NCBI GenBank assembly: GCA_965237955.1
Contig: OZ250169.1
Span: 3,808,001-3,872,000 of the forward strand
DNA length: 64,000 nucleotides
Source of the DNA: Candidatus Marinacidobacterales bacterium
Lineage (GTDB): Bacteria; Acidobacteriota; Vicinamibacteria; Marinacidobacterales; SMYC01
Direction of reading: 5' to 3'
In this document: piece by piece, positions 7,527 to 17,617 of the stretch
Numbering within the stretch: position 1 is the first letter of the stretch
Layout of the letters: every line of letters begins with the position of its first letter
Made by a program: the position numbers and the translations under genes
Notes under the pieces: generated by a model
What the model saw: the letters and a program-made list of their open reading frames with translations, nothing else
What the model was told of the DNA's origin: nothing
Databases searched by the model: none

Positions 7527-8192
7527 GTGACGTTCGCCGCCGGGGGCTGGCTGGGTGCGGGTTCACTTCTCCTGGCCGCCGCTCCCTGTCTGGGGACCCC
7601 GATAAGCTTGGGATCGACGGACTTCGAGTATCTGACCTCTCCTCCTCCGAATTTCCAAACGAGCGGAAACGGTGCGAACGAGCCCATCGGGGACTTCACC
7701 TTTCCGATCCCGCCGGGCCTCTTCGATGCGTCGGGTGATCCCGGATCTTTCGTGGCCACTTCGTTGTCGATTACCTTCACGGTATTCGACGGCGATACCG
7801 CGACCGAGGACGAGCCCGATTTCGGCGATCTGTTTCTCTCCCTCGGAATCCCTGGAACGTCATCGATCCTGGAGTTGCCGCTTCCGCTCGCTGGATTCGG
7901 CGACCAACGTCTGGATACCGCCACCAATACACTCGACCTCGGTGATGAGGTCACAACGGGGCTTGCTCTCGCCGCTTTCCTGTCCGAGACCCAGGGCATG
8001 ATTCTATTCTTCATTCTGGATGCGGACGAAGGGGGTAACCGGCTCACCTTTACCGACGCGCCGGAGGACGACTTCTTCCTGTCCGTTACCCTCGACCAGC
8101 GGATTCCAGAGCCGGCCACGTTGGCCCTTCTAGCGATGGGGATTTTCCTCGCCGCTTGGCATCGACGCCGCAAGATCGCGGCGAGGAGTTGA
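7527..8192 (+). CDS. PEP-CTERM sorting-domain surface protein (start uncertain)
   Basis: C-terminal IPEPATLALLAMGIFLAAWHRRRK; acidic, Ser/Thr-rich body. Confidence 0.85.
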   Translation: MTFAAGGWLGAGSLLLAAAPCLGTPISLGSTDFEYLTSPPPNFQTSGNGANEPIGDFTFPIPPGLFDASGDPGSFVATSLSITFTVFDGDTATEDEPDFGDLFLSLGIPGTSSILELPLPLAGFGDQRLDTATNTLDLGDEVTTGLALAAFLSETQGMILFFILDADEGGNRLTFTDAPEDDFFLSVTLDQRIPEPATLALLAMGIFLAAWHRRRKIAARS

Positions 8193-8560: not shown

Positions 8561-9505
8561 CTAGGGGTAGCTGGCGACCCCAACCGTCCGCTCTTCGGGA
8601 GAAAGGCTCTCGGTACGCTCGACGACGAGCGTGCCGGTGCCTTCGTTGGTAAAGACCTCGAGGAGTAGGCTGTCCGCCTCGTTGAAGTTGATGATGTGCA
8701 CGCGCCTGACGCCCCCAGTGAGCGCTGCTTCGATCGAGGCCGCCTTGGGCATCATCCCCTCGGCAAGGCTTCCCTTTTCACGTAGGGCTCTCAAGCCGGC
8801 AAGATCGAGATAGGACACGAGCGAGTCCGGATCCGAGGCGTCTTCGAGAATACCCGGAGCGCCGGTGGCGAGGATGAGTTTTTCCGCCTTCAACGAAACG
8901 GCGAGGGCGGCGGCAACCGTGTCCGCATTGATATTGAGAAGCGTCCCGGAGCTGTCGGCGGACAGAGGGCTCACGACCGGCAACAACCCGAGCCCCAACT
9001 GCTTTTCGAGCACGTCGACTTCGACGCCTTCAATGTCGCCGACGAAGCCGAAATCGACTGGAGCTTCTTTCTCGCGCATGACCACCGGCGGGCGCTTCGA
9101 CGCTTTGATGAGACCGGCATCGACACCGCTGATCCCAACGGCGGGTACTTGAAGGTCACGGCACGCCGCGAGGATGCGGGTGTTGATGAGCCCATTCAAA
9201 ACCATCGTCGTCACTTCGAGAGATTCCTCGTCGGTGACGCGCCGGCCCTGGACCATGCGGGTGTCGACGCCGAGCGCTTTCGCGAGCTCGGTCGCTTGCG
9301 GCCCTCCGCCGTGAACGAACACGATACGGATCCCGAGTTGATGCAGGAGCGCAACCTGTTCGATGAGGGCGCGGGTCGACGTTTTGCTGGCGAAGATGGC
9401 GCCGCCCGCCTTCACGACAAACGTCTTGCCTTTGTACATGCGGATGTACGGCGCAGCCTGCTTGAGCGCCGTGACGACGATCGCCCGTTCCGTCGCGGCT
9501 TTCAC
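8561..9505 (-). CDS. argB: Acetylglutamate kinase (AAK domain only)
   Basis: PYIRMYKGKTFVVKAGG, VHGGGPQ, GRRVTD, LNINADTVA and GMMPKA motifs; GTG start overlaps the argF' stop. Confidence 0.95.
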   Translation of the reverse strand: MKAATERAIVVTALKQAAPYIRMYKGKTFVVKAGGAIFASKTSTRALIEQVALLHQLGIRIVFVHGGGPQATELAKALGVDTRMVQGRRVTDEESLEVTTMVLNGLINTRILAACRDLQVPAVGISGVDAGLIKASKRPPVVMREKEAPVDFGFVGDIEGVEVDVLEKQLGLGLLPVVSPLSADSSGTLLNINADTVAAALAVSLKAEKLILATGAPGILEDASDPDSLVSYLDLAGLRALREKGSLAEGMMPKAASIEAALTGGVRRVHIINFNEADSLLLEVFTNEGTGTLVVERTESLSPEERTVGVASYP

Positions 9506-10509
9506 GAAGCCTCCCTCAAAATCTCGTACAGCACGGCCATCTGCGCCCACATGCGGTTTTTCGCCTGGTGAATGACGACGCTCCGCGGTCCTTCGAGCAC
9601 TTCTTCGGTCACGACGACGCCGCGGCGCACGGGAAGGCAATGCATGAACCGGCAATCCGAAGCGGCACCGTCGAACCAGCTTTTCTCCACGCGCCACCCG
9701 TAGAGATCCTTCTTCATCTCACGTTCCGCGTCGTCGTCGCCGTAGTGCTTCGCAGACGACCACGCTTTCGCGTAGATGACGGAAGCTTCGGTGAGCGCCT
9801 CGCGGGGATCGTCGCTTTCACCGATCGAGCCACCCGAGCTCGACGCCGACGCGCGCGCCCTGGCCATGACCTTCTCCGGCAGATCGAAACCTTCGGGTCG
9901 CAAGACCGTCACATCCATCCCGCGCATCGCCGCCATCTGGAGCGTCGACGCCGGCACCGCAAGCGGAAGTGCCTTCGGATGATTCGCCCACGAGAGCACG
10001 AACTTTCCCCCGGCGCGAGGGATGTCGAGCTCGTTCATCGTCTTCCAATCAGCGACGCTCTGGCACGGATGGCGGATCGCGGACTCCATATTAATGACGG
10101 GCACCGGCGACAGCTTGGCCATCGCTTGGAAGTCACGGTCTTCGACGTCGTCGTCGAGTGATTTCTTCGCCGCGAACGCGCGGATGCCGAGAGCATCGCC
10201 ATAGGAAGCCAACACCGGAACGGCTTCGCGGATGTGCTCGGCAGCGGCACCGTCCATGGTGACGCCAGCTCGGGTTTCCAGTCCGTGGATCCCGCTGTCG
10301 GGTGAAACGACGAACGAACCGCCGCCGAGGCGCATCATCGCGGCTTGGAACGACGTCGACGTCCGGAGCGACGGGCTGAGAAACAAGAGGGCAAGCACTT
10401 TGCCTTCGAGCGCTCTAGGCTCAGGATGCTCTTCGAGCCGTTGGGCGAGCTCGAGCAGATGCTCGACCGCTTCCGGAGCGAGCTCGCTCAGGTCGTTGAA
10501 GCCAAGCAT
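9502..10509 (-). CDS. argF: N-acetylornithine carbamoyltransferase (AOTCase, ArgF' type)
   Basis: SLRT carbamoyl-phosphate motif, EHIREA, HPCQ, SWANHPKALPLAVP and HCLPVRR, characteristic of the ArgF' subfamily. Confidence 0.9.
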   Translation of the reverse strand: MLGFNDLSELAPEAVEHLLELAQRLEEHPEPRALEGKVLALLFLSPSLRTSTSFQAAMMRLGGGSFVVSPDSGIHGLETRAGVTMDGAAAEHIREAVPVLASYGDALGIRAFAAKKSLDDDVEDRDFQAMAKLSPVPVINMESAIRHPCQSVADWKTMNELDIPRAGGKFVLSWANHPKALPLAVPASTLQMAAMRGMDVTVLRPEGFDLPEKVMARARASASSSGGSIGESDDPREALTEASVIYAKAWSSAKHYGDDDAEREMKKDLYGWRVEKSWFDGAASDCRFMHCLPVRRGVVVTEEVLEGPRSVVIHQAKNRMWAQMAVLYEILREAS

Positions 10510-11627
10510 GACGCCAGGGCGCGAGACAACTCGCCGACGTGTTTCTCCGGAAGATTAAGAGCTGGCATGAGCCGTAAGACATTCGGATCCGCGCTCGTAC
10601 CGACGAGAATGTCGTGGCTCAGAAGATCATCTCGTACGACGGTCGCGGGTATCTCGCACACGAGGCCGAGAAGAAAGCCCGCACCTTGAATTTTTTTGAC
10701 GGGCCCTATTACACAGGTCGAGCGAATGAGTGACGATACGTTGCGCACGTGCTGCAGTAGGCCTTCGCTTTCGATGACGTCGATGACGGTTTCAACGAGA
10801 GCGCACGCCATGGGACCACCACCGAAGGTCGTTCCGAGACTTCCCTTGGACGCTCGCTCGGCAACGGCGTCGGTCATGAGAACCGCACCGACGGGAAATC
10901 CCGCGGCCACGGATTTCGCCGTCGTGAGAATGTCGGGCACCACGTTGACGCGCTCCGCCGCGAACCCGAACCCGGTGCGGCCAACGCCGCATTGCACTTC
11001 GTCGAAGATGAGGACGGTCTCGGTCTCATCGCAGCGCTCACGAATCGCTTTCAAGAAATCAGCATCGAGATCGACAGCACCCGCCATCCCCTGGATGGGC
11101 TCGACGATCACGGCCGCGGTGGCCTTATCGATAGCGTAGAGGCCGTCTGCTTTGTTTGGGGGGATGAACTTCACCGGAAACGGCGTCAACGGGAACGCGT
11201 ACCACTTGTTGGCAGCTCCCCAGGTCACCGCGCTCGCGGCGGCGGTACGGCCATGGAAGCTATGCTCGATGGCAACGACCCTTTTGCGCTTCGACCCGAA
11301 AAACGCCAGCCGCAGCGCGTTCTCATTCGCTTCGGCGCCGCTGTTGACGAAGAACACGTGGTTCAGCCCGGGGGGCGCGAGCGCCGCGAGCCGGTCGGCG
11401 GCGCGTTCTCTCACTTTCAGGGGCACCACGTTCGATTGGAACGTGAGCTCTTTCGCCTGGCGCGCCAGCGTCTCGACAACGCGAGGATGCCCGTAACCAA
11501 GCGACGCCACGGCGTGTCCGCCGTAGAGGTCCAAAATCCAGCGTCCCTTCGCCGTCAACAGATGGACGCCCTCCGCGGAAACCGGCTCGAAGGGAAGGTG
11601 TGGGTACACGTCGAGAAGGCTCGTCAT
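10488..11627 (-). CDS. argD: Acetylornithine aminotransferase
   Basis: DLYGGHAVASLGY, NSGAEANE, SFHGRT, FDEVQCGVGRTG, TAK (PLP lysine) and GTTFGGGP motifs. Confidence 0.93.
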   Translation of the reverse strand: MTSLLDVYPHLPFEPVSAEGVHLLTAKGRWILDLYGGHAVASLGYGHPRVVETLARQAKELTFQSNVVPLKVRERAADRLAALAPPGLNHVFFVNSGAEANENALRLAFFGSKRKRVVAIEHSFHGRTAAASAVTWGAANKWYAFPLTPFPVKFIPPNKADGLYAIDKATAAVIVEPIQGMAGAVDLDADFLKAIRERCDETETVLIFDEVQCGVGRTGFGFAAERVNVVPDILTTAKSVAAGFPVGAVLMTDAVAERASKGSLGTTFGGGPMACALVETVIDVIESEGLLQHVRNVSSLIRSTCVIGPVKKIQGAGFLLGLVCEIPATVVRDDLLSHDILVGTSADPNVLRLMPALNLPEKHVGELSRALASCLASTT

Positions 11628-11638
11628 GACTGGTAATT

Positions 11639-12715
11639 CTAGATCCATCCGGGGCCTGAAAGGGTCAAGCCCGTGGTCTCGGGAAAGCCGAGCAGGCGGT
11701 TCATCCATTGGACGCCACCACCGGCGGCGCCTTTCGTCAGGTTGTCGATCACGGAGAAAACGGCTACGGAATCCCCTTCGCACGCGACGCCAAGATGCGC
11801 GTAGTTGCTGCCGACGACGTCTTTGAGCTTGGGCGTTCCCGACACGACGCGCACGAACGGCGACGAGGCGTAAAACGTTTCGAGCTCGCGAGCGATCGCG
11901 TCGCGATCGAGATCCGCTTGGAGTTTTCCCTGCACCGTCATGTGAATGCCGCGCGCGAACGGCCCCGAGTGCGGGATGAAGTGGAGCGCTGGCTTCACGC
12001 CGGCCACGCGCTCGGTGATGGCGGTGACCTCGGGTACGTGTCGGTGCGCGAGCGGCTTGTACGCAAAGAGGTTGCTCTGGCGGAGCGGGTGGTGCGTGCT
12101 CGCTTTCGGTTCTCGGCCGGAGCCGGTGCTGCCGGTGATGCCGACGGCGTAGAGATTCGGCTCGACGATGCCGAGCTTCAAAAGCGGCACGATGCTCAGA
12201 AGAAGCGCGGTCGCAAAACAACCGGGATGCCCGATATGTTGCGGTGTTTCGGTGACATGTTCCGGAAGCGCGCTCGAGAACTCGGGCACGAGCTCCTTCG
12301 CGCCGTGCGGTGAGCCATAGACGGCTTCATAGGCGTCCGCGCTCGAGTATCGAAAATCGGCCGACAAATCGACGACGCGGACGTCGGTGCTTCCGTTCGC
12401 CGAGCCGAGGAGCTCCTTGACGAGCGCGGCGGACGCGCCATGGCTCGCTGCGGAGAACGCCGCCACCGGACCACTCGCTTTTTCGAGGATGCCGGGAAGA
12501 TCGGCGCGCGAGCAGAACGTTTGATCGCCGTACGTGGAGTGCAAATGCGGGAACACACTTTCGAGCGTGTTCCCCGCCTGGCTTTCGGAAACTGCCGCGG
12601 TCAACTCGAGACGCGGATGCGCACTGAGCAATCGAAAGAGCTCGCCGGCCACGTAGCCGGAAGCACCGAGGACGATGGTGGCAATCGGTTCAGTTTTTTC
12701 AGTGGGCTCGTTCAT
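11639..12715 (-). CDS. argC: N-acetyl-gamma-glutamyl-phosphate reductase
   Basis: GASGYVAGEL, DLSADFR, HPGCFAT, TGSTGSGR, HRHVPE and IDNLTKGAAG motifs. Confidence 0.96.
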   Translation of the reverse strand: MNEPTEKTEPIATIVLGASGYVAGELFRLLSAHPRLELTAAVSESQAGNTLESVFPHLHSTYGDQTFCSRADLPGILEKASGPVAAFSAASHGASAALVKELLGSANGSTDVRVVDLSADFRYSSADAYEAVYGSPHGAKELVPEFSSALPEHVTETPQHIGHPGCFATALLLSIVPLLKLGIVEPNLYAVGITGSTGSGREPKASTHHPLRQSNLFAYKPLAHRHVPEVTAITERVAGVKPALHFIPHSGPFARGIHMTVQGKLQADLDRDAIARELETFYASSPFVRVVSGTPKLKDVVGSNYAHLGVACEGDSVAVFSVIDNLTKGAAGGGVQWMNRLLGFPETTGLTLSGPGWI

Positions 12716-13772
12716 GGCAATGCTCGAGGACGATATCGCCTAGCGTCGCGCCCGACGTGCGAGCGTTCGCGGCATCGAGAGCGAGTTGGCGTCGAATAAT
12801 GTCGATACCCACGGCGTTGTCGGTTGCCGGACCGGTCACGACGGTCGGCTCGATGCCGAAGCGCTCTCGTAGGAGCGTAACGCCGCCCCATGCAGCGACG
12901 GGATCGTTGGCCGAGAGCACGACGGAGGTGAGGACCGAGCGAATGGCGTCGTCGCCGAGGATCGCTTCGACGCCGTAGGCGCCAAGAAGGCCGTCGCCGA
13001 GCTCGAAGACGATGACGTCTGGTTGTCCTTCCGCGAGCTCGTTGAGCATCGTTTTCGTCAAGTCCGGACCATTACCGTCCGTCGTGGTGACGACGCCGAG
13101 GTCGGTGAAGATTCGAGTCTCTCGAGCGCCGGCGTCTTCCATGGCGAGGATATCGCGCCGCGCCGAAACTCCGGTCGCTTTGAAAGCATCGACCACGAGC
13201 CCTTTGTGGCGGAGACGCGACACGATCGCGCACGCGGCTGAAGTCTTCCCCGAATCCATGCACGTGCCGGCGACGGCGACGACAGGAATGCCCTTCGTGT
13301 CAAGCTTGATAGGCTTGACAGGCTTGGGGCTTTTCGGAAGCTTGGCGCCGCCGACGCGCGCGGGCACACCGATGCGCTCGCCGAGGTACGGGAAGTCGAG
13401 GACGGAGCCTAAAACTCTGCAATCGAAGGGCTCGCCGCGTTCAGGGTCGGCGCTTTCACACGTGCCGAGCACCCCACCGAGATTGAGAAGCTGGAGCGTA
13501 TCGCCCGGACGGACAGTGGCGGGCACCGAGCCCGAGTAGCCGAAAAGAGCCCTCCGGTGACCGAGGGCGCCGACCAGCACGTCGCCGCGCTTGACGATGG
13601 CCATACGCCCGCTCGCGAGCTCGAGCTCGTTGTAAGTGGCTTTGTCGTTAAGGACTTCCACCGCCACGACCACGCCCTCTTCCGCGGGGATGTCCGCGCT
13701 GAGGCGGAGCTCAGGTGTCAGCCCACAGCTCTGGGCGACGGAGGCAATCTTGTCGGCGACCGCGCGTTTCAT
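12699..13772 (-). CDS. DUF1611/DgcN-like P-loop-fold protein, first gene of the arg operon
   Basis: VVAVAGTCMDSGKT, AFKATG, DAGA..FTDLG..TT and DVIVFELGDGLLG resemble the DUF1611 C-terminal domain; its 3' end overlaps the argC start. Confidence 0.7.
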   Translation of the reverse strand: MKRAVADKIASVAQSCGLTPELRLSADIPAEEGVVVAVEVLNDKATYNELELASGRMAIVKRGDVLVGALGHRRALFGYSGSVPATVRPGDTLQLLNLGGVLGTCESADPERGEPFDCRVLGSVLDFPYLGERIGVPARVGGAKLPKSPKPVKPIKLDTKGIPVVAVAGTCMDSGKTSAACAIVSRLRHKGLVVDAFKATGVSARRDILAMEDAGARETRIFTDLGVVTTTDGNGPDLTKTMLNELAEGQPDVIVFELGDGLLGAYGVEAILGDDAIRSVLTSVVLSANDPVAAWGGVTLLRERFGIEPTVVTGPATDNAVGIDIIRRQLALDAANARTSGATLGDIVLEHCHERAH

Positions 13773-13794
13773 GGCATCATCCCCAAGGGACACG

Positions 13795-13833
13795 AATGCA
13801 TAATTATTAACTTAGATTGCATAAATAGTCAAC
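13795..13833 (-). promoter_or_regulatory. Tandem ARG boxes (ArgR operator) overlapping a sigma70 promoter
   Basis: AATGCATAATTATTAACT-tag-ATTGCATAAATAGTCAAC forms two 18-bp boxes 3 bp apart; the minus strand reads TTGACT-17 bp-TAATAA. Confidence 0.85.
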
Positions 13834-13853: not shown

Positions 13854-14741
13854 TCAACTGGCGCTGGACAGGTCGAGGGCGTCCGCGAGCTCGCGGAGCT
13901 TGCTCTGAACTTTCTTCGTGTTCTCCGGCCCGATCCGCAGGAGCTGCTTTTGCGCCGGAGAGAGCACCTCGAGGCGTGATTCCACGAACGTGTAGTTCAC
14001 GCTGTCGGCGCGGAGGGTGATGCGGTCCTCCACCACCGGCGTCTGCAGCAGAATCGAGATCGCCTTCCGCAGAGCGTCTTCGAACTGCTGATCTTGATAG
14101 CCCAGCTCCGCGTACGCCTCGTCCATCAAAGGCTTCGCGTTGCGATACACGGTAGCCAACCCTTCCGTGTCCATCGAGGCAAACGCCGACGCAAGAACGT
14201 TGTAGCGATGGTAGCCGCGCGGGTCGAGGAAAACCTGGGGCGAGCGCTGGACCACGTTGAACTTCTCCTCGGGCGCGAGATACGGAAAATGGCGCGCCGG
14301 GTTCTCCCCCTCCGCAATATTGTCGACGGCCGCGACGATCTTGCGCACGAGCTCGTCCGTCAACAGGAACGACGCCAATCCCGGATGCTGCGAGAGTTTC
14401 CCGAGAGCTTCTCGCGCGAACACGTCGCTTTCCGAGAGAGCGGGGAGAACGACCTCCGGTTCTTCCGGCTCGGGCTCTGGCTCTTCCTCTGCCGGTTGCG
14501 GTAGAGCGAGGGGAGCCGGACGATCGTCGGAAGCTTCTTGCTCCAGCACCGTCACCGGTCCGCGGCTCGAGAACAACCAGAAAAGCGTGAGCCCGGCGAC
14601 GAATGCGAGACCGGCGGCTGCGATCAGAGGCCACGTGAGTAACGACCCCTCACCGCCGTACCTTATGGGCGCCGACGCCGAGGAAGCGGTGTAATCGTCG
14701 TCCTCGGACTGATCGAGGTTCTGGTCGTCCCAATCGCTCAT
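13854..14741 (-). CDS. DUF3014 family membrane-anchored protein
   Basis: TM helix, Pro/Glu linker, LPALSESD, VAAVDNIAEG, YHRY, PLMDEAYAELGY and LSPAQKQLLRIGPEN. Confidence 0.85.
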   Translation of the reverse strand: MSDWDDQNLDQSEDDDYTASSASAPIRYGGEGSLLTWPLIAAAGLAFVAGLTLFWLFSSRGPVTVLEQEASDDRPAPLALPQPAEEEPEPEPEEPEVVLPALSESDVFAREALGKLSQHPGLASFLLTDELVRKIVAAVDNIAEGENPARHFPYLAPEEKFNVVQRSPQVFLDPRGYHRYNVLASAFASMDTEGLATVYRNAKPLMDEAYAELGYQDQQFEDALRKAISILLQTPVVEDRITLRADSVNYTFVESRLEVLSPAQKQLLRIGPENTKKVQSKLRELADALDLSSAS

Positions 14742-14898
14742 TTGAAGGTACCGAGTTACCTGCATGCTAGACCGCGGGCACAGGGCGCGCAATTCCGAAG
14801 GACGTGTTGGCACGCGACTTGCTCTAGACGTGCCACGTCAAACACGACGGAAGCGGTTTCCCCCTAAAAACCGCTTTCGGTTTTATCTGGAGGAAAGC

Positions 14899-16528
14899 AT
14901 GAGTCGCATTTTTTGGACCTTCGTGACACTTTGCGTCATCGCCGGAGTGATCGCCGCGATCGCGATACCGTCTCTATCGCGAGCCCGCATATCTTCGACG
15001 CCAACGGAACAACAGGCGTATTCCGGCGGGACGGCTTATCTCGAGGGCGGCGGCGAGTACGCGCCGGCTCCACCACTATCCGCGTTCATCGGAGAAGGCG
15101 GCGGCGAGTACGTACCTTACCAACCACCCAACGTCTTCGTACACAACACCGAGGACTACGACCCCATCGACTACAACACGTTCCAAGACGCTCGATTGAA
15201 CCCACTCTCTACATTCTCGATCGACGTCGACACCGCGTCCTACAGCAACGTGCGACGCTTTCTCGAGATGGGACAACGTCCTCCGAAGGACGCCGTTCGC
15301 ACCGAAGAGCTCATCAACTATTTCCAATACGACTATCCCGAGCCGAAGGGCGAGCAACCATTCTCGTTGACTGCCGAAGTTTCCCCGTGTCCGTGGAAGC
15401 CCGCGCACCGTCTCGTCCACATAGGTCTTCAGGGGCGAAGGATTCCGGACGACGAGCTGCCGCCCCGAAACCTCGTGTTTCTTCTCGATGTTTCCGGATC
15501 GATGGCGCAGACCAACAAGCTGCCTTTGCTCCAATCGTCGATGCGCCTTTTGACCAAACAACTCGGTGCCGAAGACCGCGTCGCGATCGTCGTTTACGCC
15601 GGCGCGGCCGGGCTCGTGCTCGAGCCCACCCCCGGATCGGACAGACGAACGATACTCAAGGCGATCGATCGATTGCAGGCGGGTGGTTCGACCGCGGGAA
15701 GCCAGGGCATTCAACTCGCCTACGAGGTCGCGTCCGAAAGCTTCATCGAAGGCGGCGCCAACCGCGTCATTCTCGCCACCGACGGCGATTTCAACGTTGG
15801 CGTCAGCAGTCGGGGAGGTCTCGAGGAGCTCATCGAAGACAAGCGGGACAGCGGAATCTTTCTCACCGTTCTCGGCTTCGGCATGGGGAACCTCAAGGAC
15901 GCCACGATGGAGCTTTTGGCGGACAAGGGCAACGGCAACTACGCCTACATCGACTCCCATCAAGAGGCGGAGAAAGTTCTCGTCCGCGAAGTGGGAGCGA
16001 CGCTCGTGACCATTGCCAAAGACGTCAAGATTCAAGTGGAGTTCAACCCCGCCAAGGTGTCCGCCTATCGCCTCATCGGCTACGAGAACCGCATCCTCGC
16101 AGACGAAGACTTCAACGACGACAAGAAAGACGCCGGCGAGCTTGGTGCGGGCCACACGGTGACGGCGCTCTACGAAGTCGTGCCGGTAGGAGTCGAGCTC
16201 GACACCGGGAATGCCGACCCTCTGAGGTATCAGCAAGTCCGACTACCCGGACCTGCGGCGCAAAGCAACGAGCTTCTCACCGTCAAGCTTCGCTACAAGA
16301 AGCCCGACGCATGGGTAAGCACGCGCTTCGAGCGCCAGCTCTACGACAGCCCTCACCAGCTCGAGAGCGAGAGCGTGAAGTTCTCGGCCGCCGTCGCCGC
16401 GTTCGGCATGCTGCTGCGTGACTCCGAGTTCAAGGGAGACGCGAGCTTCGACATGGTCCTCGAGCTCGTTCGAGAAAGCCGCGGCGATGATCCGTACGGT
16501 GACCGCGCAGGTGGGTGGCACAGGCATG
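14899..16528 (+). CDS. VWA-domain protein (YfbK-like, DUF3520); last residues lost next to the IS
   Basis: PLSTFSIDVDTASYSNVRR, NLVFLLDVSGSM (MIDAS), LATDGDFNVG and YRLIGYENR; homology stops at DPYGDRA just before the IS5 element. Confidence 0.88.
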
Positions 16529-17617
16529 CTGCCTTGGTGCACAACTCGCGATCTCGGTCCACAATTGTCCTTTACTCACGGATTCGAGGTTCCCCATGAG
16601 CATTTTCAAACGCACTCAGCGGAAGTATGTGAAGAAGGCCTATCGCGTGAGGAATTGGCGTGAATATGAGGCGGGTCTACGCAACCGTGGGAGCCTGACC
16701 GTCTGGATCTCGCTCACCGCCGGCAAGCTTGTGAACTGGGACGCGCCCCGGCCGAGGAGGAGGAACCCGGGCCGTCAACGCAAGTACTCGAACCACGCCA
16801 TCGAGACGGCTGTCACCCTGGGCATGGTGTTTCATCTGTCATCTAGGCAGAGCGAGGGATTGCTGCGATCGTTGTTCGCTCTGATGAAGCTAGACAATGA
16901 TGTGCCCGATCACACCACGATCTCGAGGCGCAAGGCGAAGCTGGGTAAGGTCCCCTTCTACCAAGACAAGCAGAAGACGCCGTTGCACATCTTGATCGAC
17001 AGCAGCGGTCTCGCTGTCCACGCCGGCCAGCTGCGCAGAGCACCAAAGAGCAGGGACTATCGCAAGCTCCATCTGTGTGTCGACGAGCAGAGTGGCGAAG
17101 TCGTCGCCGGCGAGCTGACGAGCAAAAGAGCCCGCGATTCATCGCGGGTTGCATCGCTTGTCGGACAGATCGACAGTCCCATCTCATCGGCCAGAGCTGA
17201 CACCGCATACGACGCCGGCGGCGTCTATGAGGCAATCGAGAATCACAGCGCTCATTGCTCGCCGAGGGTGCTGATACCGCCGCGCAAGGGCGCCCAGCTC
17301 GCATCGGGGCCGGCGAGCAGCCGACAGCGCAATCGCAACATTGCAGCACAAGCTCGGCTCGGCAAACGAAAGTGGCACACAGAATCGGGCTACAGCAAAC
17401 GGAGCAAAGTCGAGACAACGTTCCATCGCTACAAGGCTATCGTGGGCTCAGCGATGCGAGCGAGAGGGTTGGCGGCACAGAGAGTCGAGGCAAGGATCGG
17501 GTGCAAGATTCTGAACACCATGACGGCGCTCGGGATGCCTGATAGCGAGATGATCGGATGATGGGAGTCGGGGCCAAGCGAGCTATCGGCCTCTATCGGA
17601 GTTGTGCACCAAGGCAG
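16529..17617 (+). mobile_element. IS5-family (IS903-like) insertion sequence
   Basis: 19-bp perfect terminal IRs CTGCCTTGGTGCACAACTC / GAGTTGTGCACCAAGGCAG; no flanking target duplication. Confidence 0.88.
16596..17561 (+). CDS. IS5-family transposase
   Basis: YRVRNWREYEAGLRNRGSLTVW, PDHTTISRR, IDSSGL, RKLHL, ADTAYD and GYSKRSKVET motifs. Confidence 0.92.
   Translation: MSIFKRTQRKYVKKAYRVRNWREYEAGLRNRGSLTVWISLTAGKLVNWDAPRPRRRNPGRQRKYSNHAIETAVTLGMVFHLSSRQSEGLLRSLFALMKLDNDVPDHTTISRRKAKLGKVPFYQDKQKTPLHILIDSSGLAVHAGQLRRAPKSRDYRKLHLCVDEQSGEVVAGELTSKRARDSSRVASLVGQIDSPISSARADTAYDAGGVYEAIENHSAHCSPRVLIPPRKGAQLASGPASSRQRNRNIAAQARLGKRKWHTESGYSKRSKVETTFHRYKAIVGSAMRARGLAAQRVEARIGCKILNTMTALGMPDSEMIG

Follow-up and report, generated by a model that had tools for sequence, protein, structure and literature searches.

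A 64,000-nt window of contig OZ250169.1, from a Candidatus Marinacidobacterales bacterium, carries on its minus strand an arginine biosynthesis operon that starts with an unnamed open reading frame (ORF), here called gene X (12699..13772, 357 aa; positions are those of the window). We predict, with a probability of about 0.7, that X is the enzyme of step 1 of the pathway and makes N-succinyl-L-glutamate, by either of the two chemistries considered below. Synteny and phyletic exclusion lend good support to a step-1 role for X, as an enzyme outside the GNAT family. The gene itself is no discovery, given that the role has already been predicted in print. GapMind 2026 (10.1101/2024.10.14.618325) proposed that ACG33_RS14135, from Steroidobacter denitrificans, fills the gap left by ArgA as an N-succinylglutamate synthase, citing its linkage to the arg operon, its exclusion with the Pseudomonas ArgA, a weak Foldseek similarity to 7XRJ and a position-92 rule. 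X very likely belongs to the same family: it is ~65-72% identical to genes in the same slot in Steroidobacteraceae metagenome-assembled genomes and groups with them in a quick tree (clade support 99), from which we infer orthology with A0A127FCT3. A preliminary description of this DNA had presented X as a new synthase, a claim overtaken by that earlier prediction. As far as the accessible text of GapMind 2026 goes, the ACG33_RS14135 family resembles X in lying in arg clusters with argB, argC, argD, argF', argG, argH and argR, in its distant similarity to DgcN, in its succinyl-type ArgF' and in never occurring with a classical ArgA. The present analysis adds the mutual exclusion of X with both ArgJ and short ArgA, carriers with a canonical ornithine transcarbamylase (OTCase), an unmatched N-terminal domain and a residue case for an ATP-dependent ligase, all of which are absent from that accessible text. 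Our literature search, outside which subscription papers mostly lay, found the family of X only in GapMind 2026, and found neither an experimental test nor an ATP-ligase proposal.

X translates free of stop codons and overlaps by 17 nt argC (N-acyl-glutamyl-phosphate reductase, 11639..12715; TIGR01850 over cut-off). After the only gap, of 11 nt, comes argD (acylornithine aminotransferase, 10488..11627; best match TIGR00707, below its cut-off), followed, with overlaps of 22 and 4 nt, by argF' (acylornithine transcarbamylase, 9502..10509; NF003384 over cut-off, 322 vs 288 bits) and argB (stand-alone N-acylglutamate kinase, 8561..9505), whose product consists of one AA_kinase domain (residues 27-273) and has no GNAT match. 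The preliminary description had reported this intact operon, its bare kinase and a lack of argA and argJ, and our searches bear it out on each count. The genome, a single contig, is 98% complete with 6.2% contamination. ArgJ gave no match in it, using a search that was positive in 10 of 14 controls; the classical ArgA model (TIGR01890) matched the ArgB kinase domain only, with nothing over the cut-off; and the short ArgA model NF005840 gave no match, NF005921 giving a single weak partial one. PF04768, the NAT domain of ArgA-ArgB fusions, found no match in this genome, and none in the control genomes either, so that this search carries no information. X itself has no GNAT or ArgJ domain match in Pfam or NCBIfam.

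We then compared the neighborhoods of X relatives, which number 6678 among 8000 scored candidates and 1401 among 50% representatives. The gene directly after X is argC in 80/80 close loci (the best 80 of 530 GTDB loci, 65-87% identical to X), where the usual order is argR-argG-X-argC-argD-argF'-argB-argH, and also in 41/41 distant loci (those fetched of 82 X carriers, from other families of the phylum Acidobacteriota), under several gene orders. X-argC-argD-argB operons without argF' are found at L102, L103, L104, L106, L108 and L109. In addition, a 626-aa protein present on 4 contigs (P0237) is a fusion of X with ArgB, to which ArgA-ArgB fusions are analogous. A search for fused forms returned 8 longer proteins, of which 5 include ArgG and 2 include aminotransferase Pfam domains; these, like the apparent X-ArgC protein P0181, whose sequence looks like a frameshifted assembly and which we rejected as a true fusion, are likely artefacts or sporadic read-throughs.

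In many Acidobacteriota and Steroidobacteraceae, no gene is annotated for step 1 of arginine synthesis. Among 301 Acidobacteriota genomes surveyed (tallies include one unpublished genome, G023), 82 carry X instead (80 full and 2 partial sequences). ArgJ is present in 88 of the 301, none of them an X carrier (~23 expected if the two were independent), and short ArgA in 60 at E<=1e-23, again with an overlap of 0; at a looser E<=1e-12, short ArgA extends to 83 genomes, including three X carriers with weak partial GNAT matches. Since related genomes are not independent, we read this exclusion as a pattern and not as a p-value. The classical ArgA model had no match over the TIGR01890 cut-off in 5/5 gammaproteobacterial X carriers, five being the number of genomes checked for Steroidobacterales. 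The position of X directly before argC in all the close and distant loci, and the lack of ArgJ and of short ArgA (at the stricter level) in every X carrier among the 301 genomes, make a step-1 role for X likely. Both the linkage to arg genes and the anti-correlation with argJ are thus as the preliminary description had anticipated. In the 28 other genomes of the same class, ArgJ occurs in 27, short argA in 25 (often adjacent to argJ) and X in none; in the present genome X is present, and neither ArgJ nor short ArgA was found. This suggests that an argJ/short argA module was replaced by X in this lineage; the quick tree includes three wrong-frame rows (L083, L086 and L131), and we claim no direction of transfer from it.

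The acyl group can be read from ArgF', in which A90, P182 and V299 occupy the positions of E92, N185 and K302 of the Xanthomonas campestris enzyme. The pattern of succinylornithine transcarbamylases (SOTCases) at X. campestris positions 92, 185 and 302 is A/S/P/V/Q, P and V/I/E (PMC4581275), and ArgF' agrees with it at all three; its best match in the PDB is an X. campestris enzyme variant with Ala at position 92. Position 92 is Ala in 68 and Val in 2 of the close loci (non-Glu in 70/70), and A16, T9, V3, S3, P2 and I1 in the readable distant loci (non-Glu in 34/34), so that Glu92 is found in 0/104 readable ArgF' beside X. Position 302 is less constant, with Ala in 56/63 close loci and Lys in 4 distant loci. 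These SOTCase residues suggest that the product is probably N-succinylglutamate rather than N-acetylglutamate, and that the arginine pathway here is probably succinylated. Rescue of an Escherichia coli argA mutant by X could then fail despite a correct role, because the product would be succinylated, which explains why such a simple test could mislead. A succinylated pathway is known from Bacteroides, with the SOTCase BT3717, the predicted synthase BT3761 and the desuccinylase BT3549 (10.1101/741918). As far as it is described there, it resembles the present one in its succinylated intermediates and in a knotted transcarbamylase with the same specificity pattern. It differs at step 1, where BT3761 is a relative of the N-acetylglutamate synthase Cabys_1732 and where we predict a P-loop protein. 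Cabys_1732 is of the GNAT type.

To consider the chemistry of X, we turned to its structure model, which is confident (pLDDT 95.5) and comprises an N-terminal beta-rich domain (~1-130) and a SIMIBI P-loop domain (~154-357). No family in the Pfam and NCBIfam scans, and no TIGR or Pfam BioD model, matched X over cut-off; Pfam DUF1611 (PF07755) scored 15.2 bits, well short of its cut-off (25), and no DUF1611 N-terminal model had a match at E<=0.1. A profile alignment with DUF1611 begins at residue 160. For residues 154-357, the top DUF1611 structures are 2g0t (Z 16.8) and 2obn (Z 16.6); dethiobiotin synthetases (BioD) reach Z 14.9-16.2 (best 16.2, 16.1 and 15.6), DgcN (7xrj) Z 15.4 with an rmsd of 2.9 A over 186 residues at 11% identity, CTP synthase Z 14.8 and formyl-tetrahydrofolate (formyl-THF) synthetase Z 13.4. 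The modelled C-terminal domain thus appears about equally like DUF1611 proteins, dethiobiotin synthetase and DgcN. With the whole model, BioD and SRP GTPases are the top Foldseek matches, 2obn ranking 42nd and 7xrj not being among the matches listed. Residues 1-131, almost all beta in the model, matched nothing in Foldseek at E<=0.001 and reached a best Z of 3.9 among 48,161 chains, which does not by itself prove a new fold; DUF1611 chains are not listed in that search, although this is no formal exclusion. Matches in the ESM Atlas are hypothetical or automatically named DUF1611-like clusters only. A PDB sequence search with X returned resolvases only, which we judged to be chance matches. The assignment to DUF1611/DgcN made in the preliminary description therefore stands for the C-terminal P-loop domain, but not for the family score and probably not for the N-terminal domain, X apparently lacking the Rossmann-like domain of DgcN; likewise, the motifs that it listed (GTCMDSGKT, FKATG and ELGDG) are present, but are generic to SIMIBI P-loops and not specific to DUF1611. 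X carries KATGV and ELGDG, and has neither the TGQTG nor the EGQG motif of DUF1611.

The residues of the P-loop domain point to a nucleotide site. X has an intact Walker A loop (G169-T177, GTCMDSGKT, 13242..13268), and K176, T177, K198, D207, D224, E257 and D260 are invariant in 41/41 X sequences. In a profile alignment with BioD, GKT, K198 (13179..13181) and E257 (in ELGDG, 13002..13004) match the GKT, the conserved KP lysine and the glutamate of VEGAGG, respectively; K198 is kept in 75/75 as well as 41/41 sequences, and E257 also aligns with the Glu of the DUF1611 motif EGQG. The active site of Mycobacterium tuberculosis BioD comprises Lys15, Thr16, Lys37, Asp49 and Glu108 (PMC9932657), K198 corresponding to Lys37. 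In P-loop NTPases the Walker A Thr is a Mg ligand (10.1101/2022.06.23.497301). Walker A ends in GKT in X, in GKM in DgcN and in GKR in the DUF1611 consensus, so that the Mg-binding Thr is lost in the latter two and kept in X. X thus shares with BioD the fold, GKT, the KP lysine and the VEG glutamate, and differs from it by the additional N-terminal domain; the genome also carries a separate bioD. DgcN (PDB 7XRJ) and the DUF1611 structures 2OBN and 2G0T share with X the C-terminal P-loop domain, with GT..GK, F.ATG and E.G motifs that align, whereas DgcN differs apparently in its N-terminal domain, and also in its GKM Walker A and in its catabolic rather than biosynthetic context.

We tentatively favor, from these residue comparisons, a reading in which X would ligate succinate to L-glutamate at the expense of Mg-ATP and without CoA, as a member of the BioD/CTP-synthase superfamily whose N-terminal domain has no matched fold, over one in which it would be a succinyl-CoA transferase. 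BioD, CTP synthase and formyl-THF synthetase all use ATP to activate an oxygen, which is then attacked by an amine. By analogy, X would use Mg-ATP to convert succinate into succinyl-phosphate, from which the amide with glutamate would form, giving N-succinyl-L-glutamate as the product of step 1. By either chemistry, ArgB, ArgC, ArgD and the succinyl-type ArgF' would carry this compound on to N-succinylcitrulline. An M20 deacylase encoded away from the operon would then release citrulline, to be used by ArgG and ArgH. If this reading is true, X would represent a new class of N-acylglutamate synthase and a chemically new way into arginine biosynthesis, taking the place of the ArgA/ArgJ pair in Steroidobacteraceae and in roughly one in four of the phylum's sampled genomes.

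Several observations weigh against the ligase or against parts of the scheme around it. The profile matches are weak (82.6% probability for BioD and 84.8% for DUF1611), D207, though invariant, is displaced by 3 columns from the Asp of dethiobiotin synthetase in that weak alignment, and DgcN has an Arg at the position of K198. A sister family of 11 weaker matches (L122-L132, profile scores ~185-220 bits) keeps identical P-loop residues though it is unlinked to arg genes: no arg gene lies nearby in 11/11 cases, the neighbors being an M20 peptidase, a PGA_cap protein, an ABC transporter and an M28 peptidase. The P-loop residues do not, therefore, indicate the substrate. The fusion of X with ArgB rests on one protein cluster. 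ArgF' is over cut-off in 71 genomes, 66 of them with X; 15 X carriers lack it, and at least 5 X carriers have a canonical OTCase instead (5/5 examined); X would thus also serve such ornithine-type pathways, in which the acyl group is not readable and may differ. With regard to deacylation, ArgE was over the TIGR01892 cut-off in 0/10 tested X carriers without an operon argE, and X could itself cover this step where operons have no argE, DapE-like enzymes being other candidates. Finally, a LysW cluster (C1:3536627-3541304, with lysW, lysX, a lysY-like gene, a 221-aa ORF, lysZ and a lysJ-like gene, and no adjacent lysK) could in principle make ornithine.

Within a step-1 role, the other chemistry is that of a DgcN-like transferase moving succinyl from succinyl-CoA to L-glutamate, which we regard as possible though somewhat less probable than the ligase. 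DgcN is a D-glutamate N-acetyltransferase that uses acetyl-CoA. DUF1611 structures are the top matches of the C-terminal domain of X, one sister-family protein scores above the cut-off for DUF1611 (25.5 bits), acyl-CoA is the donor for the known step-1 synthases (PMC4490483, for acetyl-CoA), and a transferase is the reading implied by the DgcN comparison in the accessible text of GapMind 2026. However, dethiobiotin synthetases are tied with those structures (Z 15.6-16.2), the N-terminal domain of DgcN is not matched in X, and X keeps the Mg-binding Thr that is replaced in DUF1611 proteins. The preliminary description had instead made X an acetyl-CoA-dependent N-acetylglutamate synthase feeding an acetylornithine transcarbamylase pathway. 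Its non-GNAT step-1 enzyme agrees with our prediction, but the acetyl group is contradicted by ArgF', in which all three specificity residues are of the SOTCase type, by the Ala92 of its best PDB match and by the lack of Glu92 beside X; ArgF' does pass the NCBIfam N-acetylornithine carbamoyltransferase model, and carriers with a canonical OTCase might use acetyl intermediates. We consider this version very unlikely; in its details it was probably mistaken about both the acetyl group and DUF1611.

Two further explanations, each improbable in our view, take X away from primary synthesis. An argE-like gene is found in 0/80 close loci, and argA and argE are both missing from most operons; X could accordingly be imagined as an ArgJ-like transacylase that returns the acyl group from N-succinylcitrulline, or from acylornithine, to glutamate and so fills both gaps. 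The mutual exclusion of X and ArgJ, the lack of a clear ArgE in the 10 carriers tested and the lack of ArgE also in S. denitrificans, as stated in the accessible text of GapMind 2026, would fit such a recycler. Yet distant operons have an ArgE-like M20 gene of their own in 16/41 cases and an amidohydrolase in 2 more (TIGR01891, directly after argB at L105:14995-16263 and L118:2523-3788), the latter like the alternative acylornithine deacylase of the GapMind 2026 account, in kind. Moreover, 4 proteins of the present genome are over the ArgE/DapE cut-off (of 27 M20 matches, 13 were scanned), a pure recycler would need a priming synthase, of which none was found in this genome, and an intact NTP site would be superfluous for acyl transfer. 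Alternatively, X might do no more than deacylate, or it might bind NTP without catalysis and act as a partner or regulator of ArgB/ArgC, with step 1 left to an unrecognized GNAT or to the LysW route. Many SIMIBI proteins are indeed switches (10.1101/2022.06.23.497301), and generic GNATs as well as the LysW cluster are present in the genome. This would leave unexplained why both ArgJ and short ArgA are absent from all 82 carriers, and X is not merely a deacylase, since deacylases already stand beside it in 18/41 distant operons. The LysW route, for its part, ends in free ornithine. An acylornithine transcarbamylase would not accept this compound, and a canonical OTCase was not seen in this genome.

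Upstream of X lie two tandem ARG boxes, scored against an E. coli-type consensus. Box 1 (GTTGACTATTTATGCAAT, 13816..13833) has 2 mismatches and overlaps the -35 element, and box 2 (AGTTAATAATTATGCATT, 13795..13812) has 1 mismatch and overlaps the -10 element of a sigma-70-like promoter, TTGACT-N18-AATAAT (13803..13832), which is a consensus match only (10/12 positions; 2 sites found vs 0.7 expected for the pattern). The boxes, 21 nt apart and with 3 mismatches in total, form the top tandem pair in the 8.13-Mb genome, in which just 2 sites reach the level of box 2; the boxes and promoter reported in the preliminary description are therefore upheld. The runner-up pair in the genome-wide scan is at the start of argG, 1.6 Mb from the operon, where argG-argH (C1:2210306-2212955) are preceded by tandem ARG boxes of their own. 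ArgR, whose gene stands alone at C1:3518942-3519385, would repress both the X operon and argGH via these boxes.

Next to the operon, a DUF3014 membrane-anchored protein is encoded just upstream of X (13854-14813, minus strand), and is not among the conserved neighbor clusters listed. On the other side, a 221-aa ORF (7527-8192, plus strand) is convergent with argB, and we take its C-terminal end to be PEP-CTERM-like. A presumably transposase-like ORF (16515-17561, plus strand) has a near-identical start repeated at C1:3522074-3523036, close to argR. In other genomes, L012:8891-11296 holds ArgC and ArgD in a single frame of 802 codons without a stop, either a fusion or an in-frame overlap, and at L088:4754-6118 a Cys/Met-metabolism PLP enzyme is located between argD and argF' inside the arg operon.

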